DNA of 63,574 nucleotides, counting the filler, from Folioceros fuciformis (lineage: Eukaryota): NCBI GenBank assembly GCA_049999805.1. It is 22 parts of 22 records of this genome, joined end to end, with 100 filler letters (N's around TTAATTAATTAA, not from the genome) between each part and the next. Parts side by side here need not be neighbours in the genome. Positions count along the whole stretch, not along the records: positions 59,222 to 62,468 come from JBNGIO010000168.1; 21 more parts are not named here. The stretch is one strand, 5' to 3'. Every line of letters begins with the position of its first letter. Position 1 is the stretch's first letter. Made by a program: the position numbers and the translations under genes. Shown piece after piece: positions 3,339-63,574 of the stretch. Under the pieces are notes generated by a model. The model was not told the DNA's origin. It was given only the letters and a program-made list of their open reading frames with translations, and did not search any database.

Positions 3339-3623
3339 TCATAACCCTCTTGGCGGATCTTCATGTGGTAAAATCATCTCTTCTTGGTAACGACCCTCAA
3401 AAGCATTTGAACATTTGGTGACCCACCATTGCACTTTTACATATGGTTTTTCGCATGTAATATCAGCCTCTAAGACTTTGGCAATCCAAAACGGCCTATT
3501 GTCTTTGTCAGTCTCGCAAGGGATTGCAATCATATGCCCTTTTTCTATTTCGATTATATCCCCATTCAAACTGTTGCGGTCGTCATTGAGGTCCGTCTCC
3601 CTACAGTATGCCCCCACATACAT
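3339..3623 (-). pseudogene. Fragment of a probable transposon-associated protein with a small beta-barrel (BAH/Tudor-like) signature
   Basis: GHMIAIPCE...RPFWIAKVL...VKVQWW...FEGRY pattern; runs off the contig end; family assignment is pattern recognition only. Confidence 0.3.
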
Positions 3624-3723
3624 NNNNNNNNNNNNNNNNNNNNNNNNNNNNNNNNNNNNNNNNNNNNTTAATTAATTAANNNNNNNNNNNNNNNNNNNNN
3701 NNNNNNNNNNNNNNNNNNNNNNN
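3624..3723. other. Artificial 100-bp contig spacer (N44-TTAATTAATTAA-N44); first of 21, others start at 5145, 12078, 17923, 19868, 24924, 29240, 30874, 32976, 37110, 42083, 44135, 45778, 47505, 49146, 51439, 53527, 55313, 57625, 59122, 62469
   Basis: Same length and content every time; TTAATTAATTAA puts stops in all six frames; ORFs are cut at the edges. Confidence 0.98.
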
Positions 3724-3824
3724 GTGTTCTTCCACCGCTGATCATGCCGATACGTGTATAATTATATTAGAAATTAAAGGACCTTCGTGCCCAAAATTTA
3801 GTTCATTCAGCACTGGACTTAAGC

Positions 3825-5144
3825 ATGATGTCTCATGCTCGAGAGGCTTCGAGTTCCAAGGCCATTTGGGACTCCCTCTGCCAAGTCCACCAAAAGAAGA
3901 GCGTGACATCACTGGTTCATGCCACACGCGACTTCTATAACCTGAGAATGCGAGATGGTGATACAGTTGAGAATCATGTCAGTCGATTTCGGATGCTTCG
4001 CACCAAACTCATTACTGCTGGCACAACTGTAGACGAACTCCAAGCTGCTGTGGCTCTCCTCATGTCTCTTCCAGAGAAGTACAACAGCTTTGTGAGCACA
4101 CAAAATCAACACATCACCACTGCCCAAGCAGCGGTGGCTGCAGGAACACCATCGCCAATCACATTATCAGACATCATTGGTGCCTTACTGAATGAAGAGG
4201 CAACTCACATTCGAGGCCAAGGCTCCTCCTCTAACAATGCTGCAAGAGCCATGTTTGTATCTCGAGGTCGAGGACGACATACCACTAGTGGCCCTCGTCC
4301 ACCTTACAAGCCGACTGGTTCTCGCCCAACATGGCTAGCCTCGAAGTCTAACACTTCAAAGAGAGGCCCCTGCACCTGGTGCAGAATTCCTGGCCATACA
4401 GAAGCTGAATGCCGTAAGAAACAAAACGGCGAACCTAAAAGAGAGGCTCCACCTTCAGCTCATGTATCCTCAAAGAAAAGTTTGGGTGCCATGCTTACAG
4501 TATGCATGGTTTCCTCGTCCCAAGATAGACATGCTTGGTATCTAGACTCAGGTGCCACAACACATGTCTGTAATACACGTACAGCATTCACCACGTTGAT
4601 ACCTTCTCCTAAGGGACGGTTTGTCCTTATAGGTGATGACAGTGGTCTATGCATTGAGGGCATGGGTACAGTGGTCCTCCATCCTGCACATGGTCAACAA
4701 ATTACGTTTTCAAATGTTATCTATGTGCCACAGATGGCAAAGAACTTGGTGTCTCTTAGGCGTCTGTCTCCTCCGTTGCTCAGACTAGAGATGACCACAA
4801 AGGGCCTTGCTCTAAGAGAAGCTGCTGCACCAAACAAGTTGCTGGCTACCTGTACTCTCAACAACGATCTATATCAGTTTGACTTGAAGAGTAATCCGGT
4901 GCAGCACCTGAAGGCTTCAACAGTTAATGTAGCAATGGCTTCCCCGCCTAATGAAACACAGCTATGGCACTGTCGACTGGGCCATGTACATCTACAACGG
5001 CTTCAGTCCTTGTCTGCTTCATCCTTGTATCGGACTCCTTTGAAGTTTAAATCCGACAAGTCACTCTTCTGCGAGGCTTGCATACAAGGGAAGCACTATA
5101 AAGCTCCACATCCAAGTCAAGATGCTACCAGGGCTACTCACCTT
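3825..5144 (+). mobile_element. Ty1/copia gag-pol, open and truncated by the spacer (gag, CCHC knuckle, protease, GAG-pre-integrase)
   Basis: LLMSLPEKY gag motif, CTWCRIPGHTEAEC, WYLDSGATTH, VIYVPQMAKNLVS, LWHCRLGH...CEACIQGK. Confidence 0.95.
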
Positions 5145-7414: not shown

Positions 7415-9519
7415 ATGGCGGAAGAACTTGAAAGGAAGGCATCTCAGGTGCGTTTGGAAGCCCTGAGTTCTTGGAGCCGTTTAATGGATGATGTGCATTC
7501 CGAATTGCAACTGTCTGATTCGGATGTAAGGAAGCGCCGAGACCTTGTGCTATCTGTGGATGCGCTTGTCAAGTCACAAGTTCCTGGTGAGCACTTGATT
7601 GCAAGTCCATGTCCTGGACTCGCTGCTGAGACTTTTAATTGTTATTAAGTGTAATTGCAGGGAGCTCTATTACTCCTTTCGGCTCTTATACCATGGCATT
7701 ATCTACTCCATCGAGTGACCTGGATCTTTCTCTGAGTATCTCTTCACATCAGCAGAGAAACCCATCAAAAGACTACCAAATATTTTATCTTAAAAGGTTG
7801 CGGAGGGCCTTGCAAAAAGCTTCTTCAGGTACACTCTGGTATATCTGTAAGTTCTGCTCCTTTTTCCGTTTGTATATGGGTTCTCTTCTCCGTTGCTGTC
7901 TTAAGCGGGATGTATGTTTGGATGAGTGGCTTCACAACATAGGGTAGTCGGAAGGAACAAATGAGTGACGGAACTTGAGATCGCATGTATGAGGTTGCCT
8001 AATTGTGCAGCTCTGCCCTGCCCTGCCCTGTCGCTTCAGGATTCAACGGTGTTGAAGCAGTGTTTGGAGCAGCGGTTCCTGTTATTAAGTTTCAGGACTG
8101 CAGAAGTGGAATTGAGTGTGACCTGTCTATAGATAATGAAGATGGGATTATGAAATCTAGCATATTAGGCTTTGTTGGTGGGATAGACGAGCGGTTCGGC
8201 AAGCTTTGCTACTTGGTCTGTGATCTACCCTTTTGCCCATGCTTTCCTATCCCCTCTCGTATATGAGCTGGCTTTTGTGGGATCAAAATTTTGTGAATCC
8301 TTCCAAGTTTAAGGTCCCAACTTCAAGTTTTCCATGTTGTGGGCCCTTGGATTGTCAACTGATTCAGCTGATTGACATGGCTTTGTAGGTGAAAGCATGG
8401 GCCAAAGCTCAGAACGTCAACGACTCCAAGACAGGCTCGCCAAACTCGTTTACATGGATTCTTCTTGTTGTCTTACATCTTCAGACTCGCTCACCACCGA
8501 TATTGCCCCCGTTTTCAAATTTTTTGAAAGGCACGTATTACTGTCCATGGTGCTTTGATATTTGGGTCTGGTCTGCTTTTGTAGTTCTTAGCATGACTCT
8601 TGTCTCGGGCTCCAGGTTTGTGCTTTCCGAGTCATCCAAGCTTACACAAGGTAAGAAATCGCATTGAACAACTTCGTGGCTTTGGTCAAAGCAACTTTGA
8701 GACCATCCCAAAGCTGTTTGGCTCATTCTTCACCAAGGTTAGAACGGCTTTGAATCGTTAAGGGTTATCATCGCTGTCCACCGTGTACACCATCAGGTGC
8801 GCTGACAGGCATGGTACTGTGCAGCTGGTGGCAGTTGAGAGTCTCTGGGGGCGAGGGCTGTGTGCAAGTGTATGGGAGGGTAAATGGATCCATAGTACAA
8901 TGTGGATAAAGTCAAATAACATCGGCTGTGTGTGTGTAAGTTTTTAACGCTCGTGGTTCTGGGACATCGTTGTCATACGACCCTGATATTTGTTTTGCTT
9001 CTGTAGGTGGAAGACTTTCTTGATCGCGCAATCAATGTTGCAAGGGCTGTTCAGAGAAAGGAAATGACGAGGCTCTCTTCTGTGTTGCGCATCACGGTTG
9101 ACATGCTTAAGTCACCAAAAGAAGATATCGGCTCCGTTTGTGTGCGCCTTTTCGGTGTGGCGGGTGAAAGCAGAAAGCGCCCGCCCCAGCAGCACCTACC
9201 GGAGGTTTGGGGGAAACGAGTGTCAGTTCGAGAGGATCCTTTTGCAAGAAGAATTGGACCTGGCTGGCCTCCCGGCATCCAACAAACGATTCCAAACCCC
9301 CGAGATGGAGGTGAATGTGCATATTCAGGAAGGCAAGCTGTCAGGGTACCCGTCAAAAATATGAATCAGGCCATATGCCATCCTGTGGCCTTGGGTCGGG
9401 CAGGTGAAAGGACTTCCGTTCCCGATCATGTGTATGCTGCAAGACCTCAGGTCGGTGCATTTATGCCGTCTTCTTTGGCACCGCCCTCAACCAAGGATTA
9501 TATAGCACCCGGATTCTGA
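7415..9519 (+). CDS. HESO1: HESO1-like terminal uridylyltransferase; exons approx 7415-7586, 7661-7828, 8040-8215, 8389-8530, 8616-8737, 8825-8935, 9007-9519
   Basis: PFGSYTM..STPSSDLDLS nucleotidyltransferase motif, AAVPVIKFQD..SGIECDLSIDN, IDERF..LCYLVKAWAKAQNVND, GLCASVWEGKW, VEDFLDRAINVARAV; splice sites keep the frame, including a GC donor at 8531. Confidence 0.9.
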
Positions 9520-10206: not shown

Positions 10207-11038
10207 TCACGACTGCATGCTGCCGTTAGGCATGTATTCCCTGTTGCCAACCCGGGCACCTCGGGCATGCTCGTCTTGGTCACTGTAGCATAAACATAAA
10301 ATCAAGAGGATTGCACCACCAAACACAGCTATGGGGTGGAAAATCCACGTAAGGAGAACAAAGCCCAAATAAAATATTCTATTGGCCGAGGTGGACAAGG
10401 AGGAGGCGGTATCGAGGACATCCGCCACCCGCTCCGGGCTCCATCCAATATCCTGGGCTCTCAGCAAAGGAATGTTGATGAGTATGTTGACATGATTATA
10501 TACCTTGATAGATTGAATATAGAGCAGGAAACAGATGAGGAAGCAGGCGCAAAGAACCCCGAACTTGAATGTGACGAGGATATCATTCTCGGAAAAAATA
10601 GAGCGAGTCAGGGGCATTTTGATTTGGTAACTGCTGCTGACGATAGCCGCCATTCCTGTGGTGATGAGAATCGCCGATGTTGCCATTAAAGTCGACCCCA
10701 TTATGCAGTTCCTGAGAGTCTGGACAGCCAGAACAGCACTGCTCGGGTTATCCTGCGACAAGGCATCGTGCCGTGAGCTCAGCTTCTCGGATAAACAGTG
10801 TAATACACAGAAACGTTTAAGATGTACACATGCAGATTGATCCCAGAAAACGACAACAGCATGGCATTGGCGCAGAGTAAAGGGCATGTACACGTACTTG
10901 CATAATGCTTTTCACCCACTCTCTTCTGCCGAGGCTAAGTCTACTCCTGCCGACTGTTCTCTGTTTGTACCACCTGTAAATGTGATAAGCTGCCACCAAC
11001 ATCACTGCCGCAACGCCTGAGCAAATGTCGAGTGCCAT
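10207..11038 (-). CDS. DUF599 family membrane protein; exons 11038-10898 and 10752-10207
   Basis: AYHIY...RREWVKSIMQ joined to DN..AVLAVQTLRNCIMGSTLMATSAIL, then QSIKVYNHVNILIN and LTWIFHP; GT-AG intron. Confidence 0.9.
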
Positions 11039-12177
11039 TAAGCTCCTCATCGTTCTCCGCAGGCTCCAGGAAATGGTTGTATTCTGATAGCAAGCGATCA
11101 AGAGAGTGTCACTGTCTGTACCTATTTCTCTACAAAACATGAATGCACAGCTCCTTCATGGGTGAAGAGTTGCCTGTGTCACTCACACAAGAACGATCAG
11201 CTTTCTCTCTTTGAGAGATTTATTAGTGCAGCCACATGGCTTGTGGAAGAAGCGGGACGATTGAAAACCTCGAGCTGCCTGGTAGAATATTTTACGTTGA
11301 ACTCTCCAACGTTACAAATTCTAACAGACCTTATACTCCCCGAGAGCAACGTCACACAATGATCCAACTCAAGCAAGACACGGTCCGGAAAGACAGCCGA
11401 GGTGATGAATGCGCAGGGCAAACTTGCTGTCTTCCAAGTTTCACACACAGAACAATGTGTGCACACAGCTCCACGTCTCAAGGAAGCACGAACCACACAC
11501 ACTACGAAGCAAAGGGGATGAGGTGCGGGTACCACCCCACGCCAACAAGCTCGAATTCACAAAAACATCCCCAGATCCAAGCATTCGAAGGAGGCCGGAC
11601 AAAAGAAAACCATCACAAGCTCAAAACGGAAAACAGAGCGAACAATTTGCGTACCGTCACCTTCGGTTATTACAGTCGAGGTAGCTATTCCGGATCCCTG
11701 AACTGATTCGAGAGAGAGAGACGCTCCAGCAGAGCGAGCAACTTCTCAGTCGCAATCACCACGCACCAAGCAAGGGAAAAGACGGAGCGCAACCATGGCG
11801 CCCCCTTGCAACACGGAACTGTCTTCAGATGCTGCTAGCCGGCAATGCAGGGCACCGAGCGACTCGAAAACCGCTCAACTCCGTGTGGCGAGGGAGGTGG
11901 CGCAGCCGAGCTGTGTCGGACACACAGACGGTACATACTCCGGGCATGAACAGCAAGGCAATAGTCGAAGACGCACGCCGTATGCATGCGTGAGCCGATG
12001 AGACGTCTCGAGGTAACCGCCTGGAGGTGTTGCAGCACTGAACGGCAGGAATGGGACTCGGCCCGCGGGAGCAGCAGNNNNNNNNNNNNNNNNNNNNNNN
12101 NNNNNNNNNNNNNNNNNNNNNTTAATTAATTAANNNNNNNNNNNNNNNNNNNNNNNNNNNNNNNNNNNNNNNNNNNN

Positions 12178-23683: not shown

Positions 23684-24923
23684 TTAAGAAACATTCCAGG
23701 TAGCCCAGCCATCGAGATCCCTGGAGGAAGTCCAGTACCAATCCTTCTCCCGAACGCCATAGAAGGAGCAGACAGTAGGACATCCGGGTTGCTGAAGGAT
23801 CGGCTTCTCTTCGTTGTCCATGCAGTCAGGATTCTCATTCCTGGTGTACACGGACAAGTTCCGTGCAGCTCCCCACCGACACATTTGCTTGGCCTTGGGC
23901 TTCTCCACCAGATGTGCATCCGCCAGGAGACTATGGTACTTGACCAACACCACCGCGAATGCCAGCATCCGGCCTTCTGCGGTACAGATCCATCCTACCT
24001 CCTCCCGTGCGTTCCTCACCATTTGCTGCATCTCTGTGTCATGTTGCTGCATGTACTCAACCGCTTGTACCAGGTCCTGCAGGCTGTGGAAAGGACATCA
24101 GCAGTGGTGAGATATACACGTGTGTGGCGAGGTCAGGGCAGGGGAAACTGACTGACACGAGCCTGACTCTACTCACCTGTGCTTCACTTCCACGAAATGG
24201 CGACCCCGTTTGAGCAGCGGGTCGAAGAATTGGAAGAAGGGGGAGCTCTGGCGGACGGCAACCCTGTCGCTGGCCAGGACCCCACACAATCGGGTAGTGC
24301 CCAGACCTCCGTCGATGACAAGCTCGTACTTGAAGGCGTTCTTCTGCGTGAAGTTGAGGCGAGGAGCAATGACGATTGAGTCGCGCTTCATGTGGGCCAC
24401 GCTGCCGGGAGTGGTGTGGCTCCATCTCGAAATGCGGGCATCCAGAAGGTCCGGGAAAGCGTCGGTCATTCTGTGAAGCTTCACCCGCGCGCTACTGCCC
24501 CAATTGCCGAATTTCAAGTCGAAGTTGGTAGTGGCGCCCCTGAACACCAGCTTGGACATTTTGTCCTGCCATGTTCTGTTCCTGGAGCTCGCGAGCTCCG
24601 TCTCCGTGGGCATGTAAGAGTCCCCCAAGTCAAGGAAGTCCGGCACCAGCACATCTGTATTGGCGTCAGTCATATGGTTGCTCAGAATGAGGTAATTGGC
24701 CCTGTTGGAAATCCAGGTGCTGGTGGAGAACATTGTTCGGATCCCCATCGGGTGGTCACAGGTGTTGAAGAAGAATTCCACACTCAATCCTTTCAGATCA
24801 TACTTGTCCACAGTGAGCTGCAGGAAGACGATGAAGTCGTTGGCCCGGCTGAGCCGCCACCGCAGGCTCACCACCTGCCCGTACCTGAAGTAGACAACTC
24901 CATCCACCACGCGCACATGCAAG
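23684..24923 (-). CDS. Glycosyltransferase family 90 (CAP10-like) protein, 5' end missing; exons contig end-24176 and 24083-23684
   Basis: VEFFFNTCDHP, VLVPDF, WQDKMSKLVFRGATT, FKYELVIDG, FFQFFDPLLKRGRHFVEV..SLQDLVQAVEY...MVRNA. Confidence 0.85.
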
Positions 24924-29339: not shown

Positions 29340-30873
29340 CGACAACTCCTGTTTGGGGCCCAATGGCTTTTTCATCCTTCTCCGACGTCTCAACTCCACG
29401 TATTCGTCACCAAATTCTGGTTCATGATGTCCCGGTCAGCTTATCAATGGAGGAATTCAAGGAAGAAGTTCTTGAAGACAATTACATCACCTTCGAGGAT
29501 GAGCCTCGGTGGCTCCTCCGGGATCTTTCTACCAAGCGGCATTCTTCAGTTTTGGTATCCCTTCCCAACGTTGATTCTGCATCTGCAATTCTTCGGCTCG
29601 GCCTTGCTTTGCAGGGGTGCATGCTGCGGGTGACACCTTTTGTACCCAATGCCCTCCCTACTCAATGCTTCCGGTGTCAACGTTTTGGACACACTCAGAC
29701 ATTCTGCAGGAGCGCGGAGCGATGCTTGAACTGTGGTGGGCCTCATCCAGCTTCGGACTGTAAGGTGGCAACCTCTCTATGCTGCAACTGCCATGGATCT
29801 CATCGGGCCACTAACCCTTCATGCCCTACTCGCCTCGAAGCTAACTCCAAGTTTTTCTCTCGACCAGGCCCTTCATGAGTCCCCTCAAGATCTTTCAACT
29901 TAACTGTCACTGATCCTGTGTGATCATCTCTACTCTTCTGAATCTGCTTCTGACGTCTTTTGACATTCTTTTCCTTCAGGAGCCTTATATCATTAACCCT
30001 TCCACTGCACTCTCCCACCCGCAATGGACTCCTATCCTCCCCTCTCCTAGTCTCCCCTCCCGCCCTCGGGTCCTCACCTATGTTAACAAAAGCCTTTGCT
30101 CTAGTAATATTTCTCCCCGCTGGAATCTTTTTAACCATCCTAATATCCAATGTGTCCAGGTCTCTTGTCCAGGCCAAGTCATTAACTTTGTTAACCTTTA
30201 CAATCCGCCTGGGTCCGATAGCACCATCCGCATTCTCACTCCACATGCCCACTTCCTCTCTCAACACTGTTTTACTCTCGGAGATTTCAATCTTCATTAC
30301 CCCTTGTGGGAATCTACTGCATCTAATGAAGTGATTTCCTCAGTGGCCGATGAGTTTGCCCTCTTCATTAACACTACTCCCCTCTTTCTTCTCACCCCCT
30401 CGGATTGCCCCACCTTCGTGTCTTCTACAAATAACACTTTTACTTTGGATCTCACGCTTTCTGCTGCGGATGTTCGCAACTTGGTTGATTTCTGTGATAT
30501 TCTCCTCGATCTAGATGCGGGGTCTGACCACCAAGCTATTGGTTTGTTCCTTACTATTCCTTCCTGTTCAGATTCCCCTCCTCCGCCTCCTCTTCCTTCC
30601 CGCCTTAATATCAAAGTTACTGACTAGGACAAATTTTCTTCCACTTTAGCTTCTGAGGTTTCGACTAACTTGGTGGGTCTTGGGCTTCCTCAAACTATTG
30701 CTCAAATTGATCATCTTGTGGCTCAAGTCACAATATCTTTACAGAAGGCTATCTCCGCATCTACCCCCGCAGTACGCCCTCACCTCCTTGCTAAACCTTG
30801 GTGGTCTCCTACCCTCTCCTCTCTTTGCAAGGGGCTTGCTCGGGCTCGTCGGGTCATGCGCATTACTAAGACT
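29340..30873 (+). mobile_element. Non-LTR retrotransposon of the Tad1/I-group type: ORF1 3' half with three CCHC knuckles (ends 29878) and ORF2 AP-endonuclease starting at overlapping ATG 29875
   Basis: TQCFRCQRFGH...C, CLNCGGPH...C, CCNCHGSHRA....CP; ORF2 LKIFQLNC, DILFLQEP, PRVLTYV, NLYNPP, LGDFNLHYPLW, PTF..TLDLT, GSDHQAI, KPWWS; stops at 29911 and 30625. Confidence 0.85.
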
Positions 30874-33075: not shown

Positions 33076-33262
33076 GAAGTAAGGGGGCTTGGTAAGGTCC
33101 GAGCACTGGACGTGTGTGTGTGTAGGTCAGTCGAGCTTTAGATGTTAATTGACTTTAGAAGCTAACCTATGTAGTTTAACACAAATCATTTCCTTGGGAT
33201 CGAATCCCAGAGCTACAACAACATAGAGGGCTTGTGTGGACCTCGCGGAACCCCGGGTACCA
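33076..33262 (+). mobile_element. 3' end of LTR family B
   Basis: CCTTGGGATCGAATCC...ATAGAGGG..TGTGTGGACCTCGCGG matches 44090-44134 and the reverse complement of 61451-61540. Confidence 0.65.
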
Positions 33263-37409: not shown

Positions 37410-40164
37410 ACTCAGACAGAAGTTTTCATTCAAATCTAAAAAACATGTGTTCATAGGCTACACACCAGGCATTCATGGTTATAAGGTATTTGAACCTGTC
37501 TCACGGAGTAGTTCATGTACGTACATGCACGTACTGGTTATGTTTAATGAACGTTCTGTCCTTCAACCTCCTATCGATTCCCATCTTGAGCCTCTTGACA
37601 TAGACATCGATATTATTAATCAACCATAAGAACTTGCAAAGTTAGACGTAGATGGCTCAGATTTCACAGATGTTGTTGATTTTCCTACCTTCGATGCCTC
37701 TGACGCTTCAGACTCTTTAGTTCCCGATCCTACTTCAGACTCCCTTCTTCCAAATCCACCACTACCTACTGTGGCTGATGATCCCCTTGATCTAATTCTA
37801 GTTGATTATGATCCAGCTCCTGATGTACTACCTCCTATGACTAGTCCTTACCCTATGGAGCCTGAAGTTGATGATCCTACGGAGTATATCATTCCTCCTC
37901 CTGATGCAGATCCTCGTAGGTCTACCAAGATTCATAGAGGACGTGATCAGTGGATTGAAAAGCCTTATGAGGCGGAAGATTGGCGCATAAGCAGGAATCG
38001 TCCAGTGGGAGCAAACTCAAACTCAAATGACACTGTGAGAGAATTTGCTCACTTGCCTGTTCAGCATGGCTATGAACCTCAGTCCCACAAACAAGCTATT
38101 GTTGGGCCCGAATGTTGTGACTGGATTGCTGCTATCACATCTGAATACAACTCTCTGATTCATAACCACACATGGGAGCTTTGTCCCCCGCTAAGGGGAG
38201 GAAGGTTGTCAGCTGTAAGTGGGTATTCAAACTGAAGTACAAAGCTGATGGATCTATAGTGAGGTACAAAGCCTGGTTGGTCACCAGAGGGTTCTCAAAA
38301 GTGCCAAGGTTAGATTATCACGATACCTTTCCCCAAGTGGTCAAGGCATAGTCGCTTTGTGCCTTATTCGCCATGTCTGCATTCTTTGCCTTGTTTCTCC
38401 ATCAGATGGATGTGAAAACCGCCTTTCTTCACTCTAAGTTGGAAGAAGAGATATATATGGCGAAGCCAGAGGGTTACAAAGCTGAAGGTGGAGAGGACTG
38501 GGTCTGCAAATTACTGAAGACTATTTATGGGTTGAAACAGTCTCCCAGGGCATGGTACCAGTACATTGATGAGTTTCTTCTGAACCTAGGTTTCGTCAAG
38601 AGTGATGCCAACTCCAATGTTTATTTCCTGCAAGATAAAACAGGGTTTGTTGTGTTAGCATTATATGTCGACGATTGCATCCTACTAGGGGCTGATTTAG
38701 AAGGAATCAATAAGGTGAAGAAGCTCTTATCTGGGAGGTTCAATATGGTAGATATCGGAGAGCTGTCCTATTGGTTGGGTACCTAGTTACTTCGAGACCT
38801 GTCAAAAGGCACACTCGTTATTCATCAGGATCATACTTGATATGCTTTTCAAGTATAAGTTGATGGACACTAAAACTACTGCAACTCCTATGGAAGCAGA
38901 CTACAGGCTCAGTCTTGAGCAGTCAACCATAACAAATGCTGAAAAACGTGAAATGGAAGATGTACCTTACCTCAAGCTGTAGGCTCCTTGATCTTCTGCT
39001 CCAACCATACAAGACCAGACATTTCATTACCTGTTAGCATGGTGTCTCAGTTTCTCAAGGAACCTGGCAGAGCGCATTGGTCAGCAGTTAAGAGAATCTT
39101 AAGATACCTGAAAGGAACAAGTAGACATGGCATTCATTATACCAAATAGGCCTATGAAGGTAAGGCACTCACCTTAGTAGGTTACAGTGACAAGGATTGG
39201 GCTGCAAACCCAGACTCTAGGAAGTGAGTGTCCGCACATGCTTTTCTGCTGGCTGGAGGCATCGTCACCTGGCCTTCCAGAAAGCAAGTAACAGTCTCGT
39301 TATCGTCAACAAAATATGAGTACTGTGCTCTAACGCAAGCTGCAAAGGAAGGCATCTGGTTAAGAAGACTTCTCAAAGATCTTGGCCAGGAGCAGACACA
39401 GCCAACCATCATCTATTGTGATAACCAAGGAGCATTCTCACTCGCTGAGAATCCAGTTTTTCACTCAAGGACAAAGCATATTGAAGTATGTCACCATTTC
39501 ATTAGGCATGCTGTGTCTACAGGACAAATTCAACTAGAGTATGGTCCGACAAATTCTAATGCTGCTGATATCCTAACAAAGGCACTTCTAAAGGTAAAAC
39601 ACATGTAGTTTAAAGAAGCACTAGGAGTCTTAGACTCCTCTTACTTGTCAGTTTAGGTAGAGTCGATCCTAACTGTATAGTGATAAAAGCACTTGTTTAC
39701 CTGAGTCTGACTCAGAGCTACTACAGTCTGGCTCTTCAAAGAAGAGGTTTCTCCCATCATTTCTTTCCTGTCCCCCTCTCCCAAGGAGTCCCAAATAGGT
39801 TGGATCAAATCCGAATCCAGTAGGCTCTTCGTCATTGTCATCATCTTCTGTTCCGTATTCTATACCAGCTCTGTCACTCATTTGGTGTTGAGACACTACA
39901 AGAATGACAGTGTTAATAGTCAGGTCACAAGTTCATAGCATTCCTCAAGCCACAGCAATAGTGGTAAGTGAATAACAGAGGCGTATGTGGCACAATAACA
40001 CCCTAGGATATTAGTTAGGTTAGCTATAGCAGTTGTAACTACATCTAACTCCAAGAACATATATGTATGGTTTTTCATAATACACACCTCTCATAGATGC
40101 ATAAGCGCGCGTCTATAAAGTTTACATTCTACATCTATTACCTATCCTTATCTTGGGCCCCACA
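37410..40164 (+). mobile_element. Degenerate Ty1/copia pol (integrase tail, RT, RNase H) with probable 3' LTR 39986-40164
   Basis: FIGY...HGYKVF, HQMDVKTAFLH, LYVDD, YCDNQGA, RTKHIEV; many stops and frameshifts; TGTGG...CCCCACA segment after a purine-rich tract. Confidence 0.9.
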
Positions 40165-42959: not shown

Positions 42960-44134
42960 AGAACATTTCAACCTCACTGCTAATTAGTGAGAAAACTACA
43001 AAACATGGCCGGGGGGGAATCCCTGCAGGTGGCTGGCCTGAGACGGCTGGGGGCTGGATTCGAGAGCCGGGTAGTGGCTTGCGGCCTGGTTAGCGGGCGG
43101 ATCCGGCGAAGGTGGAGTCTGGAGGAAGGTGGAGTCTTTGAGGGGTTGCAGATGACCTAAGGGAAAGGCACTCGTGAGTTTTGGTAGTTTGGAGAGGGTG
43201 ATTAATTTTGATAAGAGCAACCAGGGTCGCAAGTTAGAGTCAGTTAGGTTAGAGTCAAGTTAGGTCGGAATTAGGTTTAGGGTTTTGATGATTGGAGGGT
43301 TCTGTCTGAGGTATAAGAGCCCAGGTCTGTCATTGAGGGGGGAGGTTTTTTTGGTCAGAGCTCCCTTGATCTTGTGTGCAAGCTATTGGGTTAGAGGTTT
43401 AACCTAGTGTGCAGATGTGCCTCGGCCTTGATTCCCCAGGCCACTAGGGGAACGTTGGCAGCTCCCAAAATCGCCGAGATCTGGGTGGCAAGATACGCAG
43501 GGGCTGACCTTTCTTGCATGCTGGTTGGGTGGTTGGGGTACCTTGACGTCCCTAAGGGTTTCCAAGGCGACGGATTGCAGGGCTGTGAGCCGAGGAGGCT
43601 ATCCAGCCTCGGTTTGCACATCCCTGCCTCAAGGACTGCAGGTGAGGGGCTGTTGTGTTTCAAAATCCCAGAGTGAGACGTGATGGTGAAGAATAGAAGA
43701 GTTGGAGTGCTGGAGTAGAGGTTTGAAGTGCTGGAGAAGCGCTGGAGTAGAGACTTGAAGTGCTGGAGTAGAGAGTTGTTGTGCTGAGGTGAGGAGCGTA
43801 GGTGTTGAATTCTCAATCAGTTGTTGAGGTCGCTGGCATTTAGGGTTGGGAGTGGAGGTTGAGGCCAGGGTTGGAACTCCCTCTCAGTTGTTGAGGCGGC
43901 TAATACCCCGAGCTAGGAGTGGGCGCTGAAGATGATGCTAAGTCCTCATTCAACTGGGGTTGTAGTTGGTGTTGAAGACAGGGTTCTCGTCTTTTTGCTG
44001 TAGTGTGGTTAGGTCTAGGAGCCTGCTAATAGATAGGATCAGATTAGGGCAGAGTTGGGGGGGAATTGTAGGAAACCTTGACACTGGTTCACTCCCTTGG
44101 GAGCGAATCCTAGTACTACGACGATAATAAGGGG
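42960..44134 (+). mobile_element. LTR family B sequence (left edge approximate)
   Basis: End matches 33180-33230 and the reverse complement of about 61490-61530; TATA-like GTATAAGAG at about 43311; no coding signal. Confidence 0.55.
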
Positions 44135-45877: not shown

Positions 45878-47504
45878 CTAGACGAACCGTGCCCTAATCC
45901 CGTCGAGTCTCCGTTCCGTCAACGTGTCGCTATTGTCACAACACTCCCCCTCGGTGCGGATAAGGAGACTGCTAGGCTGGTCAGTCAGTCTTCGACAAAT
46001 GGCCTCTTTGGTGCGTGCGTGTCTTCAGCTGTTGTTGTGCTTGCTGTCCGCGCTATGATGGCTGCTGCAGCTAGCAAGTTGTGCTGTACAGGTTACATGT
46101 GAACTCGTGGAGAAGCGCGATCCGTCTGCTGGGATGGCGCGCGAACCCTTTAAGAAGGAACGCGGGGCAGTCATTTTTACGGCTCCCTCGAAGGGGACGG
46201 AGGCGGACGCGATTATGAAGAGGTTTAAGGTTGCCGTGACGCAGCCTTTGCTTGACGACTGAGCTGCTTGTGCTGTAACGGAGTCGTTGGAGTTGTAGCT
46301 CCCCCTTCGTCCGATTGCTGGATGTGTGCAGAATATACGTCTTTGCTAAGTAGTCCGATTCCCCTTCTGTGCTTGTCGAGCTGCTGCTTTGCCAGCCCCT
46401 TGGTAAGAAGATCAGCCGTGTTCTCTGTTGTGCTCACGTATATCAACTTCACGTGCTTGTTGGTTACCACCTGCCGGATGAAATGGTGTTGGATTTCAAC
46501 GTGTTTTGTCCTTGCGTGGAGGACCGGGTTTAGTGTCATGGCAATGGCGGACTGGTTGTCGCAGTGCAACTCTGTTGGCTGTTCCTGGTCCTCGTGCAGA
46601 TTATGCAGAAATTGTCGAATCCAAAGTATTTCCTTCGCGACCAGAGATGTGGCTGCGTACTTGGCCTTGGTTGATGACAAGCATACAGTCTGCATCTTTT
46701 TGCATGCCCAAGAAACAACGACGTTGCTTATGATCATGCAATATGCTGCTGTAGCCTTGCGAGCATCGGGGTCACCTGCCCAGTCTGCATCTGAAAATGA
46801 GGTTAGTACGCACTTCTGAGCTTTAGGGTCTTCCTGATACTTGATGTCGAGTGACTTTGACCCTTTGAGGTAACGTAAGATCCTCTTTACGCAGGTCCAG
46901 TGTGCTATGCCGGGGTTCGACAGGTATCTAGACGCAACGTTGACAGCTTGTGCTATGTCGAGCCGAGTCCATATGGCCAAGTAGAGCAAACTACCCACTG
47001 CCTCGCTATAGGGTATGTTTTCCATCTCTTTAGCCTGCTCAATAGCTGTTGGGCTGTCGAGAGCTGACACTTTCTCGCCTGTTGCAGTGGGAGTTGGTAC
47101 GGGTTTTGCATCCATCAAGTTGAATCTTGCGAGAAGCTGATCTACGTAGTGCTCCTGATGGATGAAGAAGGAGTGCTCGACTGGGTTTCTGTCGAATTGC
47201 ACTCCGAGTGCGTACCGTAGTATCCCCATGTCGGCTACCTCATATTCTTTTGTGAGCAAGTCCTTCGCGTGCTGGATTATCTGAGGGTCGGTCCCGAAGA
47301 TAAAATTGTCGTCCACATATAAGGTGACGATCGCGTACTTATTGCTGTTGATTCTTAACATGTACACACCTATGTCGGCTGTGAAGGGTGTAAACCCACA
47401 CTTCTTGAGGTACGAATCCACCGTTTCATTCTAGACCTGTGCTGATTGTTTAAGGCTGTAGATTGACTTAAGTAGCTTGCAAACCTTTCGCTGATCCTGC
47501 ACAA
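45878..47504 (-). mobile_element. Ty1/copia RT-RNase H, PPT (45944-45951) and start of 3' LTR (from 45943)
   Basis: LYVDD, YSEAVGSLLYL, FSDADWAGD, CDNQSAI, RTKHVEIQHHFIR, ADLLTK; AGGGGGAG followed by TGTTG. Confidence 0.95.
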
Positions 47505-51538: not shown

Positions 51539-53526
51539 AGGTGGAACCCGTCGGCAATCAGTGCCCGGGGTTTTGCCTCCACATTTTTGGCGCCGCTGCC
51601 GGGGAGCGGCTTGGGAGTTTCTTTTGCTGATCGGATGGAGAGTCTAAGTTGTCATGTAGATGTCTAGTGGAAGAGGTGATCGCAGAACTGGTAGAGGGAG
51701 AGCAGTTGTAACCCCTTCACCAAGGGATCTGCGTGCAACAAGGAGGAATTTGCTGAGAGGAGAGAGTAGCTTGACCCCTAAGGCTAGCACCCTTGTGGAG
51801 GAGGAGCTGCCTTGGTCAAGTGGAGAGCACGAATCTGAAGGGTCAATTGCCGGAGAGCGTGACATCCAAGAGGTTGGTATTACATCTGTTTGCAGGAAGG
51901 AGTCTTATAGCCAGCGAGTCGGTCGTGTTGAGAGAGAGTCTGTGTTACAGCCGAGTGTTTTGCAGTCAACTCTAGGTGATACTTCAGTCGTGGTATCATT
52001 GCTGGATAGCTTGCAGTCACTTGTTGGTGGTCAACCAGTCCCCTTGCCAGCCATTGTTCCATTGTCAGCCCCCGTAGTGGTTTCAGTAGGGGCTGTACTT
52101 CCTACGTCAAGTATCAGCCAAGTGGGTGGAGGAGTTGCTACAAGGATGGCTGCTCCTATTCACAGTCGTCAGCAATACGTGAAGTTTGGAGACAAGAGAA
52201 GAGGGGAGGATGCTGAACCCTTCCTAAGGACGTTCGAGCATGTATCTCGTGCCAACATGGAGGACACTACAGCTGATCGTTTGAGGATCTTTCCAGGTTT
52301 GCTGAGAGGACAAGCTCAGCAGTGGTACAGCCGGACGTATGGAGTGACACAACCAGTGGATTGGGACAGCTTGAAGGACGATTTCTTGACCAGGTTTCGA
52401 GGTCTCAGCCATGGCCACCACACCTACGCGAGGTTGAGGACTTTGAAGCAAGGAAGGAAGGAGGATCTCTATGATTACATTGAGAGGTTTACAGCTATGT
52501 GGACAGGATCCCACGTGGTAGGCCAGTTTTCCCAGGAGGTCCGAGTACTCCAGGGTACACGGATGCTCAAGCTTTGGATTGGTTTGCTGGAGGACTACCC
52601 GATCGGATGGCGACCTACTGCACAAGAGGTGTGACCACTTTGCAGGAGGCTTTGAAGGCTGCTGAAGATTTTGAGCTTTCGGAGTTGAGCAGAGAGAAGA
52701 GGAAGCAGAACCGGAAGTATGGGCATCATAGGAGGTTGAGACATCACAGCCCATCTTCCTCTTCAAGGTCGAGGTCACCGTCTCACTCTGATCCGGATTA
52801 TGACAGCCTTGTGTCGGATCCTTACACTGATGAGGAGTCCGATAGGGCTTATGAGAAGAGGATGAGGAAGGATCTGGAGAAAGCACGCAAGAGGCGTGAG
52901 GAGGATGAGGATCGTCAAGTTGAGAAGGACAAGAGAGGCAAAGGATCCTATAGGATGGAGAGAGGCAAACCGTCCTCAAGTGGTGGAGGACTGACCAGTC
53001 AGGTTGAGGCATTGACGAGGAGGCTAGCCGAGCTGGAGGTGACGGCTGTACGCAACCAAGCACCAAGGAGGTCACCTTCATCGGGTCGGCAGTTGGTGTA
53101 CTGTTCTATTTGTCACCAATCAGGACACACTCACCAAGAGTGCACTAGGGCTCCCCACCACGCCGTCAACCAAGTGAACGCTTACCTACCAGGAGACTAT
53201 TGGTACGTGGATGACTCTTATCAGGTACAGGCTGTGACTGCCCCTCGACCACCACAGTCCATTCGGCCATCTTTCCAACCCCCAGGACCTCCTGGAATGA
53301 GGTATGGTCCTCGTCCAGTATCTCCAGGCCATTGGAGGCCAGATCCGTCCCAGCGTCCACAAGTGGTGGCAGCAGGTTGTTGTTTCAATTGTGGCTTGCC
53401 GGGACACTATGCTAACGAGTGCACAGAGCCACGTAGGCAACTTGGATTTGTGCCGTTTTGTCAGGTGTGTAAGGATCCAGGGCACAGGGCTGGGGATCCA
53501 AGGTGTTCGGGCATCCCTAGGCCTGC
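51539..53526 (+). mobile_element. Ty3/gypsy (Athila/Tat-like) 5' end: family A LTR end (51583), tRNA-Asp PBS 51588-51605, gag from 51660 with one frameshift near 52500
   Basis: CCACA-TTTT-TGGCGCCGCTGCCGGGGA; EDAEPFLRTFE, LRGQAQQWY, WDSLKDDFLTRF, LKQGRKEDLYDYIERF, WFAGGL; three CCHC knuckles. Confidence 0.9.
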
Positions 53527-59221: not shown

Positions 59222-60411
59222 CCCCAAAGGAGCAGATAGATATGCAGGATGTATCCTATAGACATGTAGTCGGGAGCCTCGTTTTTGTGGTGAACTAGAC
59301 TCGACCTGACATCCAGTATGTAGTTAGTACAGTGTCGCCACTAAACATCCGGGCAGGGATCATTGGGTTGTCGTTAAGCATATTCTCATATACTTAAAAG
59401 GCACTTCGACACATGGGCTCGTATAAAGCATAGTGGCAAGGCTAAGCTCATTCTACAAGGTTTTACAGATGTCGATTGGGCGTTTGATGCTGACTCCCGT
59501 CGCAGCCTCTCCACATATTGCTTTCTCCTTGTAGGAGCTGCTATTAATTGGAGTTGCAAGAAACAACCCTCTACATCTTTGTCTTCAACAGAGGCAGAGT
59601 ATAAATCTCTCACTGAGGCCACCAAGGAGGCCAAATGGGAGAGGAGGTTCTTGCAAGACTTGGGGCATACACAACAAGATCCTACCCCCAATACTTTGCG
59701 ACAACATGTTAGCCCTTGCATTGGTTGCTAACCCTCGCTTCCACACACACACCAAACATATAGAGATATCCCATCACTACATTAGGGATGTTGTGGATAG
59801 AGGGGTAACAAGGTTAGTTTTGTTGGAACAGATGATCATGTGGCCGACATCCTAACCAAAGCACTTTCAAAGCCAAACACCATAAGCATATGAATGGCTT
59901 AGGCCTGGGTGATTATTCAGTGTATGTGAATGGCACATAACAAAGAAGGAGCAAATGACTCAGTGGATGAAGCTACCAGCCGACAACCAATCGTGAGTTA
60001 TGTATCTTCAAGTTGTTTATCTATGAGCTTTCTTCAAATTCAGAGCTGTTGCAGCTGCTTTGCAAGCACATGTGTTTTCTACCATAGAGTTGGGGATGCC
60101 CCATGCATGGAGAATCATTGCCTGCTGGTGGACTATTTGTTTTTTTGTTCTGTTTTTGTGGAGATTGCTATGGACAAGTTGTTACCTAAGTGTGAAGCTT
60201 GAGAGGGAGTGTTAAGAATACAAGCCCTATCACACTTAGGGTTGTATATACTTAATTTAGCTTAAATATGTTTAGTTAGAGTGAAGACAACATGATTCTA
60301 GGTCATGAGCATTTAAACACATTTTTGTAAGCATTTTGTATTGTATTATCATTCATTCAGTTTGGCAACAACCACTTGCACAACCTTCACATCTTGCACA
60401 TCGTTCGCACA
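59222..60411 (+). mobile_element. Degenerate Ty1/copia RNase H, PPT (60201-60209) and 3' LTR 60210-60411
   Basis: GFTDVDWA, SLSSTEAEY, HTKHIEISHHYIRD, ADILTKAL; GAGAGGGAG followed by TGTTAAG...TTCGCACA. Confidence 0.88.
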
Positions 60412-61330
60412 TATGCTCAGGGCTGGAAGCAATGTTGCAAAGTGGTGTAAAGATAAGAAAGTATGTCTATTGTGACATAGATGTGCAGGCTCAAGTTGTG
60501 GCAATAGCACGTGTGCAAAAGCTGTTGAATCGTTATCCAAATTTGTTAGACAAGGGGGCGGTGAGGAACTTTCAAAAACAACTACCTGCGGATGTAAGGC
60601 ATATAGGATGGGAGAAAATCTAGGGATTGGGAGTGTCAGTAAACTTGATCATTGCCGAGTGGGAATGTCAAGGCATGTCATTGGCAGGAGCAGGGGATTG
60701 TTGGATCCAGGGTCAGCACTATTCTTTGAGCTGACAAGGATCATTAGGTTGGTTCAATAATATCAACAAAAGCCATGTGGGCACATTTTTTAGAACGTTC
60801 CGACAATATTTGACAAGAGGCAAACTGTGAAGGACATCTTCAAACAAATTAGAGGAGTATTGGGTATGGAAGTATATCTTGATGCTGTGCAGTTTGGGTC
60901 ACGTGCACATCGACTAAGGTGCATATGGACAAACATGATGCCTAGAGAAGTATTGATGGCATGCAGGGATATCATAGTGCCAAAAATGGTACAAGTGAAA
61001 GACATCATGTTTGGAGACAGGCATCCTCAAGAAGTCACGAAGCGTGAAAGTATGCCGTACTTTGCTGTGAATGAAGTGGGAAAACCAAGGGTACCATACC
61101 AACCTTTGTAAGTGCAAGTGGCTCTTATGCTTTTGGGTATGCTGACTCACCAAGAAGAGTGATGAGCTCAGAAGGAGATGATCTAGGAGAGCCAAATGCA
61201 CGAGAGCGAGAGTTAGTCATGGGATATGTCTTTGGAGCCACAGATGTGCAAGGTGTGATTGAGAGACTAAGACGAAGGTTATTGGGGCAGTCCATGGATG
61301 TCAACATGTTGACGTGGTTGTGCAACACTT
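60411..61330 (+). pseudogene. Intronless C5 cytosine DNA methyltransferase pseudogene of the retrotransposon-borne type
   Basis: Motifs in order: end of I (ICSGLEAM), II (YVYCDID), III (LPADVRHI), IV (LIIAEWECQGMSLAG, Cys codon 60666), V (GSALFFEL), VI (IF*NV), VIII (QFGSRAHRLRCIWTN), IX (EPNARERELVMGY), X (RRRLLGQSMDVN); stops and frameshifts. Confidence 0.85.
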
Positions 61331-61450
61331 GTGTAGCTTATCAATGGAGTAAGTACAGAAAGGGCAAGGTAGTCGCAGTGGTACCGCAAGCTAGGGCAAC
61401 CAAAGATAAGGAAACCAAGCCTGTTGAAGCACAAGTGTGGAGTAAAATGT

Positions 61451-62468
61451 TGTGTCCGAGGACACCGCGAGGCCCACACAGACCCTCTATGTCGTTGTAG
61501 CCATTGGATTCGCTCCCAAGGGAATGATTTGTGCCAAGTAGCACAGGTTTCCTCTACTATCGACTCTTACCTAGGTTAGACCTTGTCCCCTACCCTTTCT
61601 ACTACCTGCTAGCTCCCTACCACTACCCCTGGTTAGCCTAGCTACGGCGGACCCTACTCTACGACCTTGGTCCCTGCTCTATGACCGGGGTTACTGGTTC
61701 CACGTTCGGTAGTGGTCTCCACAACCGTGGTGGGTCCCACCCAGAGCCCTTACTAATATTTTCCGGCGCATGCGCCTCTGTGGGTTTCCACCACGGGTTT
61801 CTGCTCAGGGGCTTCCAGACTCACAGATATGGTCTTATTGGATGCTCCTTACACATGCAAATACTAATCCTTGGGGGAACAAGGCCCCGCGGATCAGCCA
61901 CACTCCCTCACACACACATGCAACACTCCTCACACATGCAAAACACACCAGAACTCTGGTGTATGCTTAATCCTCACAGGTCTATTTCCAAGTGTCTTCA
62001 ATCACCCAGCAACGTCCACAAATCTTCAGTGAATCTCTCACATTCCTTACAATCTCTCACCAACTTCAATAATCGTCAATAGTCGCTCACAAACACTTCA
62101 AGGTTTCTCAAAAATTTTCCAGGAATCACATCCAAGTTTTAGCACTCTTTCTCAATAAGAGTAAGGGTCCAGTAACCATGCAGCAACCCCAGCAATCTTC
62201 CAGGCCTCCACGCCCTCTCTGCTCGCTCCTCCGCAGCCGACAGTTCAGGGAATAAGGGAGGGAGAGTTTCTCCCTCCACTCCACGCAACGGGCGGATTCG
62301 TCGCCATCTTCCCAGCCCACGGCCAGTCAATCTTCCTCTCACGCTCTCACTCGTTCACCATTCTTCTTCTTACTCACTCACTCTTCATCCTCACACACAC
62401 ACTCTTTGCCACCGCGGCATCTCACACACTCTTCTTAGGTTCAAAAAGCAGCTTCGGGGTTAGGGAAT
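61451..62468 (-). mobile_element. LTR family B copy, terminus at 61451
   Basis: 61451-61540 is the reverse complement of 33180-33262 and 44090-44134; minus strand ends ...GGACACA. Confidence 0.65.
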
Positions 62469-63233: not shown

Positions 63234-63574
63234 TCAGGGACTTGGTTGGATGTCGAGCCCCAGACCCTTGCAGTGCGCAATGTGCCTATCTTTTGGAAGT
63301 GCCTTCGTGAGTAGGTCTGCCACGTTCTGTTCTGTGGGCACGTAGACTAGGTCAATTTCTCCGGAGGCCACTGTCTGCCTGATGTAGTGCTGTTTGACAG
63401 CTATGTGCCTGGTCCGAGAGTGATGCACAGGATTCCTGGACAAGGCTATGGCTGACTGGTTGTCGCAGTAGACAGTCGTGGCTCCTGGTTGAGGGAAGCC
63501 CACAGACGCCATAAACAGGCGGTTGTACACAGTTTCTTGAGCGGCTGCAGTGGCGGCCGTGTATTCTGCCTCGG
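63234..63574 (-). mobile_element. Ty1/copia RNase H C-terminus
   Basis: EAEY.AA, VYCDNQSAIAL..NPVHHSRTRHI.VKQHYIR, VPTEQNVADLLTKAL. Confidence 0.93.

Follow-up and report, generated by a model that had tools for sequence, protein, structure and literature searches.

Does a run of broken reading frames in an assembly deposited for Folioceros fuciformis preserve a DNA cytosine methyltransferase that was once mobile, and if so, what kind of element carried it? The initial annotation had stitched motifs of a C5-methyltransferase (C5-MTase) together from several frames and read them as the remains of a retrotransposon-type enzyme. The window analysed here (63,574 nucleotides) consists of 22 short contigs with N spacers between them; the physical context of the fossil is the 3.2 kb contig at 59222-62468 only. 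Our analysis indicates that the fossil is likely a dead pol fragment of a Ty3/gypsy-type LTR retrotransposon with a DNMT3-like domain, of the KnitGypsy-Dnmt3 kind, most likely with the order gag-protease-DNMT-RT-RNaseH-integrase-PHD.

Structure and decay of the domain

Upon translation, three forward frames are collinear (60411-60698, then 60683-61090, then 61045-61428) and correspond to positions 74-172, 169-308 and 294-422 of a family profile of 461 positions, leaving no room for an intron. The claim that the broken frames can be joined into ordered, intron-less C5-MTase motifs is thus borne out by a collinear profile match. The proposed extent of 60411-61330 holds for its start but not for its end, as homology reaches about 100 bp further, to about 61428. 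In tblastn with 150 relatives, this region was the sole match in the window. All features are collected in Table 1. Two side observations concern the window as a whole: an Rfam search returned no family, and an ORF with DUF599 looks like a last exon only.

Table 1. Features of the contig carrying the fossil domain, in window coordinates.
Feature	Position	Strand	Basis and remarks
Decayed C-terminal Ty1/copia pol (post-RT, RNase H)	59346..59872	+	tblastn E 6e-21; read as unrelated neighbour, not carrier
Non-coding spacer	59921..60410	+	GC 0.38, CpG o/e 0.12; composition, contigs, Pfam
Pseudogenised DNMT3-like C5-methyltransferase domain	60411..61428	+	family HMM and tblastn; start of motif I lost, reaches motif X and a short tail
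Motif I remnant (AdoMet-binding loop)	60411..60431	+	FGG part gone; family homology begins abruptly here
In-frame stop TAG	60621..60623	+	between motifs II and IV
Motif IV with catalytic cysteine, AEWECQGMS	60654..60680	+	family's GWECQ form, G before W also altered here
First frameshift zone, near 60690	60683..60698	+	overlap of two frame matches
In-frame stop TAA	60758..60760	+
Motif VI (ENV), stop codon TAG (60791-60793) in place of glutamate	60791..60799	+	reads stop-N-V
Motif VIII, GSRAHRLR..WTN	60896..60934	+	intact, DNMT3-like
Second frameshift zone, near 61090	61078..61095	+
Motif IX, EPNARERE..GY	61189..61227	+	intact, third frame
Motif X, LLGQSMDVN	61279..61311	+	intact, third frame
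Start of very high-copy repeat, ends the DNMT fragment	61436..61619	+	contig depth, blastn, alignment

Motifs VIII, IX and X are all present and in order. Of motif I, only the part behind the F-x-G-x-G AdoMet loop is left; the loop itself is missing from the fossil. The alignments of nearly all relatives begin at 60411 or 60405, with the HMM match starting at profile position 74, and the conserved segment that precedes the motif I remnant in the relatives is absent. The reported change of ENV to stop-NV in motif VI could be confirmed, the stop codon replacing the glutamate. The catalytic cysteine of motif IV, invariant across an alignment of 20 sequences, is present in the fossil. Its WECQ form had been regarded as an oddity in comparison to PCQ. 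This does not hold, since GWECQ is the commonest form among the motif IV matches in 150 relatives (52 compared to 31 for GWPCQ); WECQ is a family trait and no mutation of this copy. With three in-frame stops (60621, 60758 and 60791), two frameshifts, neither the catalytic glutamate codon nor the start of the AdoMet motif retained, and both ends cut off, the copy is functionless now.

In the fossil, CpG o/e is 0.39, with TpG at 1.42 and CpA at 1.72; the window as a whole has a CpG o/e of 0.59, and its other 21 contigs range from 0.40 to 0.88. The CpG depletion noted by eye is therefore real, but the value just marks the lower end of the local range. Together with transition-rich differences from sister copies, the CpG loss fits a long decay under host methylation.

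Such sister copies were found in contigs of runs labelled as the same organism, which show several diverged DNMT copies, as would fit the proposal of a family in this genome; copy number is not given by the contigs, and summed contig depths as quoted below are not copy numbers. Ten variant places are listed between 60658 and 60860, and at these places 3-8 contigs per run have another letter. One contig over 60419-60713 exhibits 23 differences and 15 gaps in comparison to the fossil, and one contig skips 60471-60998, representing an internally deleted form. A run presumed to be RNA gave contigs on the flanking repeats only and none on the DNMT stretch, which has no bearing on expression.

Assignment to the DNMT3-like class

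A phmmer search with a 145-residue middle piece against 1.84e9 proteins revealed 304 matches at E<=1e-3, the best at 2.3e-21. A family HMM built from 50 relatives matched the three frames with E values of 2.8e-31, 2.7e-40 and 3.5e-28. The closest relative is only about 40-42% identical to the fossil, and no close intact copy was found among the relatives searched. In the PF00145 search suggested initially, the fossil pieces stayed below the Pfam cut-off (best E 0.18, 11.7 bits vs 22; nothing for the other pieces), whereas 50 of the 76 relatives scanned passed it, and it is their profile that matches the fossil at 2.7e-40. Since the fossil is sub-threshold in PF00145, the proposal to take a missing hit as refutation would mislead.

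Among solved structures, DNMT3A/B/C come nearest to the family profile (1.5e-25), followed by DRM (5e-13) and M.HhaI (7e-9). Three stretches of DNMT3A are matched in order and hence unpermuted, while DRM matches only profile positions 117-249, at its C-terminal residues 229-351, because of its permuted motif order. The statement that the domain is unlike MET1, CMT or DRM is supported by this linear order and by DNMT3A/B/C as nearest structures. Searches with single pieces were less informative: phmmer against PDB sequences gave chance-level matches only, including the third piece against DNMT3A at E 1.9, and a word-index search of the third piece against longer proteins returned no match, which is weak evidence. 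In the ESM Atlas, the third piece retrieved unnamed clusters and one cluster named 'DNA (cytosine-5-)-methyltransferase fragment'. Of the host-type companions (ADD/PWWP, DUF3444), no Pfam domain was detected flanking the fossil in the three forward frames or the tail, a weak test as the fragment is cut off.

Carriers and their layouts

The reading as a retrotransposon-type DNMT is supported by the relatives, which are DNMT3-like domains within Ty3/gypsy-type polyproteins. Of 230 relatives compared by local similarity, 108 contain retroelement domains in the same protein as DNMT; single-copy, intron-containing host genes or bacterial contaminants without such a link had been named initially as homologues that would speak against the reading. 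The order RT-RH-DNMT-INT-PHD (type A) was found in 73 relatives and PR-DNMT-RT-RH-INT-PHD (type B, counted as PR-DNMT-RT...) in 35. The DNMT domain stands alone in 122, many of them short gene models on short contigs. Pfam domains among 76 relatives comprise RT_RNaseH (16), rve (13), Integrase_H2C2 (13), RVT_1 (12) and PHD (10). Both layouts were also observed on DNA, in all four metagenome contigs examined (L001, L002 and L005 of type B, L004 of type A). Terminal split repeats A...B-A-B occur in two of these four loci, L001 and L005; no terminal repeats were found in L002 and L004.

The relatives stem from Scenedesmus, Chlamydomonas eustigma, Cymbomonas, three Closterium strains, Marchantia polymorpha, Sphagnum and many unnamed contigs; the first three are type A carriers. 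No Klebsormidium protein was among those returned by the homology searches. In the Marchantia and Sphagnum proteins, a retropepsin-like stretch lies ahead of DNMT (E 1.7e-20 and 3.5e-18). The description of such systems as little known in land plants agrees with the literature searched, but PR-DNMT proteins of this family from Marchantia polymorpha and Sphagnum are already present in public databases.

Which of the two layouts the carrier possessed was assessed by tree and profile scores. In a quick tree search, which contained neither canonical host plant DNMT3 nor a Klebsormidium sequence, the fossil falls into a clade of 34 rows that includes all type-B rows, the Marchantia protein and three proteins of Closterium among them, and no type-A row; the support of this clade is moderate (SH-aLRT 81), and the fossil has a long branch (1.46) and a deviating composition. 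Overall, the fossil groups with the type-B layout, together with proteins of Closterium, Marchantia and Sphagnum. A carrier with the order RT-RNaseH-DNMT-integrase-PHD instead of protease-DNMT-RT is unlikely. This layout is the commoner one among the relatives, the clade support leaves it some room, and the motif I-IV piece slightly prefers the type-A profile (91.8 vs 88.3 bits). Against it stand the summed profile scores, with type B ahead by 34 bits (306 vs 272), the clade without any type-A row, and the top tblastn sums, which come from type-B or DNMT-only proteins.

On the contig of the fossil, tblastn with the relatives and Pfam in the forward frames revealed no gypsy RT, RNase H, protease, integrase or LTR, as had been noted for RT and integrase, and A...B-A-B terminal repeats are absent around the fossil. 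The retroelement link consequently rests on the relatives and not on the fossil copy itself. It is conceivable in this situation that the fossil descends, as a pseudogene, from a gene of the host, namely a host DNMT3 or a methyltransferase domesticated from a transposon; this gene would have been duplicated in the ordinary way without ever being mobile in this lineage. The bare contig, the large share of relatives with DNMT alone and the annotation of the Marchantia and Sphagnum members as ordinary proteins would agree with such an origin. We nevertheless consider it improbable, as the domain has no introns and occurs in several diverged copies, one of them internally deleted, and as the Marchantia and Sphagnum members themselves exhibit the retropepsin-like stretch. 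Further, no Pfam domain follows the fossil, whereas plant DNMT3 as described in PMC6453930 has DUF3444 at this place.

About 500 bp upstream and on the same strand lies the end of a Ty1/copia pol, detected with residues 172-348 of the window's own RVT_2-bearing ORF (46225-47430) as query. The adjoining element as carrier, with DNMT as an extra gene after pol, would be in line with a passage of PMC12344493 that mentions DNMT3 in 'LTR Copia and DIRS' elements; the source cited in that 2025 paper, however, is the 2018 paper PMC5890265, which says Gypsy. Several findings make a copia carrier very improbable. Family homology begins in the middle of motif I, with the preceding conserved segment missing, and the intervening spacer is non-coding, probably representing the post-pol or putative LTR region of the copia remnant. 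Summed contig depth is not the same over the copia remnant as over the DNMT stretch, and the last ~100 bp of the spacer drop to roughly single-copy depth between two sides that are both multi-copy, at unlike levels. None of the 230 relatives was found joined to copia-type segments of this contig. The junction at 60411 itself is spanned by one exact contig (59757-60448).

On the right side, the summed contig depth over the repeat amounts to 2534-4488, compared to about 8-11 for single exact contigs, and 20 and 23 contigs diverge upstream at 61436. According to blastn and alignment, a core of ~70 bp of this repeat recurs in the window at 33180-33248 and 44089-44124.

A bacterial Dcm-type methylase acquired by contamination or gene transfer, an objection already foreseen in the initial annotation, is effectively refuted: relative P0159 is labelled as a Candidatus Obscuribacterales MAG and weaker loci (E about 1e-10) stem from diverse metagenomes, but the profile favours DNMT3A over M.HhaI, P0159 is nested deep within the type-B retroelement clade, and the fragment lies between eukaryotic transposon remnants with its left junction bridged by an exact contig.

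For the gypsy-type element, we infer the role of the domain in the living state as well as the origin of the truncations. The methyltransferase would have been translated as part of Pol and, by analogy to published work on such elements, may have methylated the cDNA or the new copy of the element itself. The carrier's PHD finger at the C-terminus probably steered integration by reading chromatin. The ends would have been cut off on the left by the Ty1/copia remnant with its trailing sequence and on the right by the very abundant repeat.

Significance

Judged by sequence, the fossil is a member of an already described kind, similar to KnitGypsy-Dnmt3, with relatives found here across green algae and bryophytes. 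Its worth is that of a pointer to a wider family, in which two domain orders are fixed and the integrase is followed by a PHD finger. If the window originates from a land plant, one more embryophyte contains remnants of such elements, and one could then reasonably ask whether de novo methyltransferases encoded by transposons ever had a part in shaping plant methylomes or gave rise to host genes. A more far-reaching picture is tentative and, taken as a whole, rather doubtful: instead of being a peculiarity of Klebsormidium, DNMT3-like gypsy elements might form an ancient lineage present throughout Viridiplantae, with two orders of domains and an integrase tipped by a PHD finger. Land plants would have received this lineage by entry or by inheritance, and it would have multiplied in them. 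The several diverged fossils of this genome would be traces of this activity, while better-preserved or perhaps intact, expressed copies would persist in this genome or in its relatives and could write methylation by themselves. These wider implications are not carried by the fragment alone.

Comparison with known systems

The closest described system is KnitGypsy-Dnmt3 of Klebsormidium nitens (de Mendoza et al. 2018, PMC5890265). Common to both is an intron-less, unpermuted DNMT3-type domain inside a gypsy-type LTR Pol of a streptophyte, the Pol context of the fossil being given by its relatives. The A...B-A-B arrangement, reported in that paper for DIRS elements and as common to KnitGypsy-Dnmt3, is paralleled by the DIRS-like split repeats of the type-B relatives L001 and L005. 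In contrast to KnitGypsy-Dnmt3, the fossil is dead and has no attached carrier, and with no Klebsormidium sequence among the matches the kinship is one by kind. According to the paper, retroelement DNMT3 in green plants was acquired 'in the K. nitens lineage', and its main text names no other green plant with such elements, whereas the relatives found here extend over chlorophytes, Closterium, Marchantia and Sphagnum.

SymbioDIRS-Dnmt3 and SymbioLINE-Dnmt of Symbiodinium (PMC5890265) are likewise retroelement-encoded C5-MTases, the DIRS type being DNMT3-like and inside Pol; the Symbiodinium elements were assayed in that work in a host free of methylation. Their carriers differ, being a DIRS element with tyrosine recombinase in one case and the ORF1 of a LINE in the other. 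The sole Symbiodinium protein among our matches is remote, with E 2e-9, 26% identity and a very long branch in the tree.

With host DNMT3 (DNMT3A/B structures, PpDNMT3), the fossil shares the catalytic fold, the motif order and a motif VIII of the ..AHR.R..W.N type. Unlike host enzymes, the family shows neither ADD/PWWP, as in animals, nor the C-terminal DUF3444 that follows the N-terminal MTase domain of host plant DNMT3 according to PMC6453930. It also differs by motif IV, GW[E/P]CQ compared to GSPCN in the DNMT3A alignment, and by its occurrence in transposon polyproteins.

DRM is distant DNMT3 kin, as the profile match indicates, but its motifs are permuted while those of the fossil run from I to X in order. 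In chromoviruses, which are gypsy elements, a chromodomain follows the integrase. Similar to these, the carrier relatives of the fossil bear a chromatin reader at this position; their module is a PHD finger instead of a chromodomain, accompanied by DNMT, and neither PHD nor integrase is present in the fossil.

Results

To establish homology, the middle piece of the fossil (60683-61090) was searched against 1.84 billion representative proteins, which gave 304 matches with E<=1e-3, 54 of them at <=1e-10 and the best at 2.3e-21. This search is decisive for real homology, whereas Pfam alone would say no: PF00145 matched only the middle piece (E 0.18, 11.7 bits) and none of the others, and single pieces matched PDB sequences at chance level. 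The initial annotation had pointed to a PF00145 HMM as a check. In its direct form this check fails, but a profile built from 50 full-length relatives matches the three frames with E 2.8e-31, 2.7e-40 and 3.5e-28. Searched against the window, the relatives gave no match outside the fossil.

The three forward frames (60411-60698, the middle piece and 61045-61428) form a single collinear domain. They match positions 74-172, 169-308 and 294-422 of the family profile, a contiguous series that leaves no space for an intron, so that the initial reading of C5-methyltransferase motifs in order, in broken frames and without introns, was confirmed. Motifs IV, VIII, IX and X are legible, motif I is reduced to the segment behind the glycine loop, and in motif VI a stop codon replaces the glutamate, as the reported change of ENV to stop-NV implies. 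The proposed extent of 60411-61330 is correct at its start, but homology continues for about 100 bp beyond its end, to 61428. CpG depletion was also recovered, with an observed/expected ratio of 0.39, whereas the window as a whole has 0.59 and the remaining contigs range from 0.40 to 0.88; both TpG and CpA are elevated. The copy is broken and truncated (see table) and has no function.

For class assignment, a profile of 20 relatives was searched against PDB sequences. DNMT3A, 3C and 3B were nearest (1.5e-25 to about 1e-22), with three matched DNMT3A stretches in linear order, while DRM reached 5e-13 through its permuted C-terminal half only and M.HhaI 7e-9. Judged by this similarity the domain is DNMT3-like, and the earlier exclusion of MET1, CMT and DRM is sound. 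The WECQ form of motif IV, initially regarded as peculiar in place of PCQ, does not reflect damage to this copy. A count of motif matches across 150 relatives gave 52 for GWECQ and 31 for GWPCQ, and each form is present in both element layouts described below. A 20-sequence alignment shows no variation at the cysteine, at the glutamate of ENV or at the arginines of motif VIII.

Relatives carry this domain inside the Pol of gypsy-type elements, in agreement with the proposed origin from a gypsy-like family. Pfam analysis of 76 relatives revealed PF00145 in 50, gypsy-type RNase H models in 16, rve and Integrase_H2C2 in 13, RVT_1 in 12 and a PHD finger in 10. Per-protein tables show two layouts: RT-RNaseH-DNMT-integrase-PHD (type A; proteins P0015, P0045 and P0060) and gag zinc knuckle-protease-DNMT-RT (type B; P0207, P0211, P0219, P0165 and P0154). 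At the DNA level, metagenome contig L004 has the type-A order, and L001, L002 and L005 have protease-DNMT-RT-RNaseH-integrase-PHD. Sorting of 230 relatives by similarity to reference segments assigned 73 to type A (complete or partial) and 35 to type B; the remaining 122 had the DNMT alone, many of them on short contigs. Most full-length relatives have a PHD finger behind the integrase, among them 34 complete type-A proteins recognized by similarity.

A quick maximum-likelihood tree was built from 81 rows, the fossil being translated through with X at each break; in it the fossil falls inside a 34-row clade (SH-aLRT 81) that holds all type-B rows, three Closterium proteins and the Marchantia protein MARPO_0008s0049, which shows the top identity to the fossil (41%). 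All type-A rows, Scenedesmus and Chlamydomonas eustigma included, lie outside. The long branch and deviant composition of the fossil are expected in a pseudogene. Summed over the three pieces, the type-B profile scores 306 bits vs 272 for type A; taken by itself, the first piece fits type A slightly better. Clade membership and summed score favour type B, which is probably the layout of the carrier. Protein P0159, which carries the label of a DNA cytosine methyltransferase from a Candidatus Obscuribacterales MAG, is placed deep in the eukaryotic type-B clade and probably stems from a eukaryotic contig binned in error.

The window strings together 22 contigs of 1,006-6,833 bp, separated by 44 N + TTAATTAATTAA + 44 N, and is not one chromosome stretch. 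The fossil's contig (59222-62468, 3,247 bp) alone is therefore its physical context, and features on different contigs have no physical linkage. On other contigs Pfam detected Ty1/copia gag and pol, LINE endonuclease, gypsy gag, a DUF599 ORF and a GT90 fragment, a combination that would be compatible with a plant-like genome.

Features of the window and of related elements
Feature	Position	Strand	Remark
In-frame stops of fossil	60621, 60758, 60791	+	60791 at motif VI glutamate
Frameshifts of fossil	near 60690, near 61090	+	
Post-RT part of copia pol	59346-59872	+, as fossil	matches the window's RVT_2-bearing copia ORF, E 6e-21
Very high-copy repeat	61436-61619; core also 33180-33248, 44089-44124	core copies both -	contig depth, recurrence; candidate LTR end, SINE or MITE
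Transposon remnants (copia gag/pre-integrase, LINE endonuclease, copia RT-RNase H copies, gypsy gag with zinc knuckle)	3771-5144, 29914-30627, 38565-39662, 46225-47430, 51660-53524, 63234-63572	+, +, +, -, +, -	
Candidate host gene pieces: DUF599 ORF; glycosyltransferase family 90 fragment	10207-10911; 24173-24922	both -	E 6.8e-38; E 1.1e-7
PHD finger, examples	P0015 1629-1671; L001 7881-8024		chromodomain position of chromoviruses
Split direct repeats	L001 159-382 / 8092-8728; L005 852-1022 / 11183-11824		order A ... B-A-B

In both flanks of the fossil no protease, RT, RNase H, integrase or other Pfam domain was found, in line with the initial statement that RT and integrase of the carrier are not visible on this contig. 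DNMT homology sets in abruptly, mid motif I, and the conserved segment preceding motif I in relatives is absent. On the right, RT is missing although the spacing in L001 predicts its start before the contig end; the fossil is thus cut on both sides. There the high-copy repeat follows, with a core of about 70-100 bp common to three contigs of the window and a summed contig depth, which is not a copy number, of 2,534-4,488, where single exact contigs reach about 8-11. At 61436, 20 and 23 contigs (two runs) diverge upstream. On the left, about 490 bp of AT-rich, CpG-poor sequence without domains separate the fossil from the copia remnant, which is frameshifted as well. An exact contig spanning 59757-60448 bridges the left junction, which is therefore real in the assembly of reads. 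Depth is about single-copy over the ~100 bp just ahead of the DNMT but multi-copy, at unequal levels, on either side, which speaks against the Ty1/copia remnant as carrier; it is a neighbour.

Sister copies were sought among Logan contigs from four runs that carry this organism's label, aligned at 80% likeness; two runs stem from one sample, possibly the source of the assembly. Several non-identical contigs cover the DNMT stretch. Ten listed variant places (60658-60860) carry another letter in 3-8 contigs per run, a 288-base contig over 60419-60713 shows 23 differences and 15 gapped positions, and another contig runs from 60471 directly to 60998 and is thus internally deleted. Along the whole contig, transitions make up most of the differences. 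These observations fit an old, multi-copy, decaying family.

Discussion

Named family members comprise proteins of Closterium sp. NIES-68, NIES-53 and NIES-54, two of Chlamydomonas eustigma, a 'pol' of Scenedesmus sp. PABB004, one of Cymbomonas tetramitiformis, the Marchantia polymorpha protein mentioned above (P0169, 961 aa) and Sphagnum troendelagicum P0179, annotated as DNA methyltransferase. According to PMC6453930, the MTase domain comes first in host plant DNMT3 and is followed by DUF3444. In the Marchantia and Sphagnum proteins the order is reversed, with a retropepsin-like stretch ahead of the DNMT (E 1.7e-20 and 3.5e-18 to type-B protease), which makes retroelement pol fragments the probable identity of both. 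Pieces of this element family are already in bryophyte genomes, filed as ordinary genes. A literature search covering main texts returned no report of retroelement-borne DNMTs in embryophytes. A lead of more interest than the fossil itself is the wider pattern of two fixed domain orders, a PHD finger and a range from prasinophyte-grade algae to bryophytes.

By analogy to the published elements (PMC5890265), the methyltransferase of a living element would be made as part of Pol and would probably have methylated the new cDNA or copy. Chromoviruses carry a chromodomain behind the integrase, whereas type-A and type-B relatives have the PHD finger at the same place; by this analogy it would probably guide integration through chromatin.

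The type-B elements on L001 and L005, themselves degenerate with broken ORFs, show a DIRS-like repeat arrangement despite encoding a DDE integrase; no split direct repeats were found in L002 and L004. The DIRS arrangement is A-coding-B-A-B, and the Klebsormidium KnitGypsy-Dnmt3 elements combine DIRS-like repeats with gypsy-like domains, according to the same paper (de Mendoza et al. 2018, PMC5890265). No Klebsormidium protein is among our matches, and we infer kinship from architecture: with their A ... B-A-B repeats and gypsy-type domains, the type-B elements resemble KnitGypsy-Dnmt3 as described there. The fossil adds to this already known kind of retroelement-borne DNMT.
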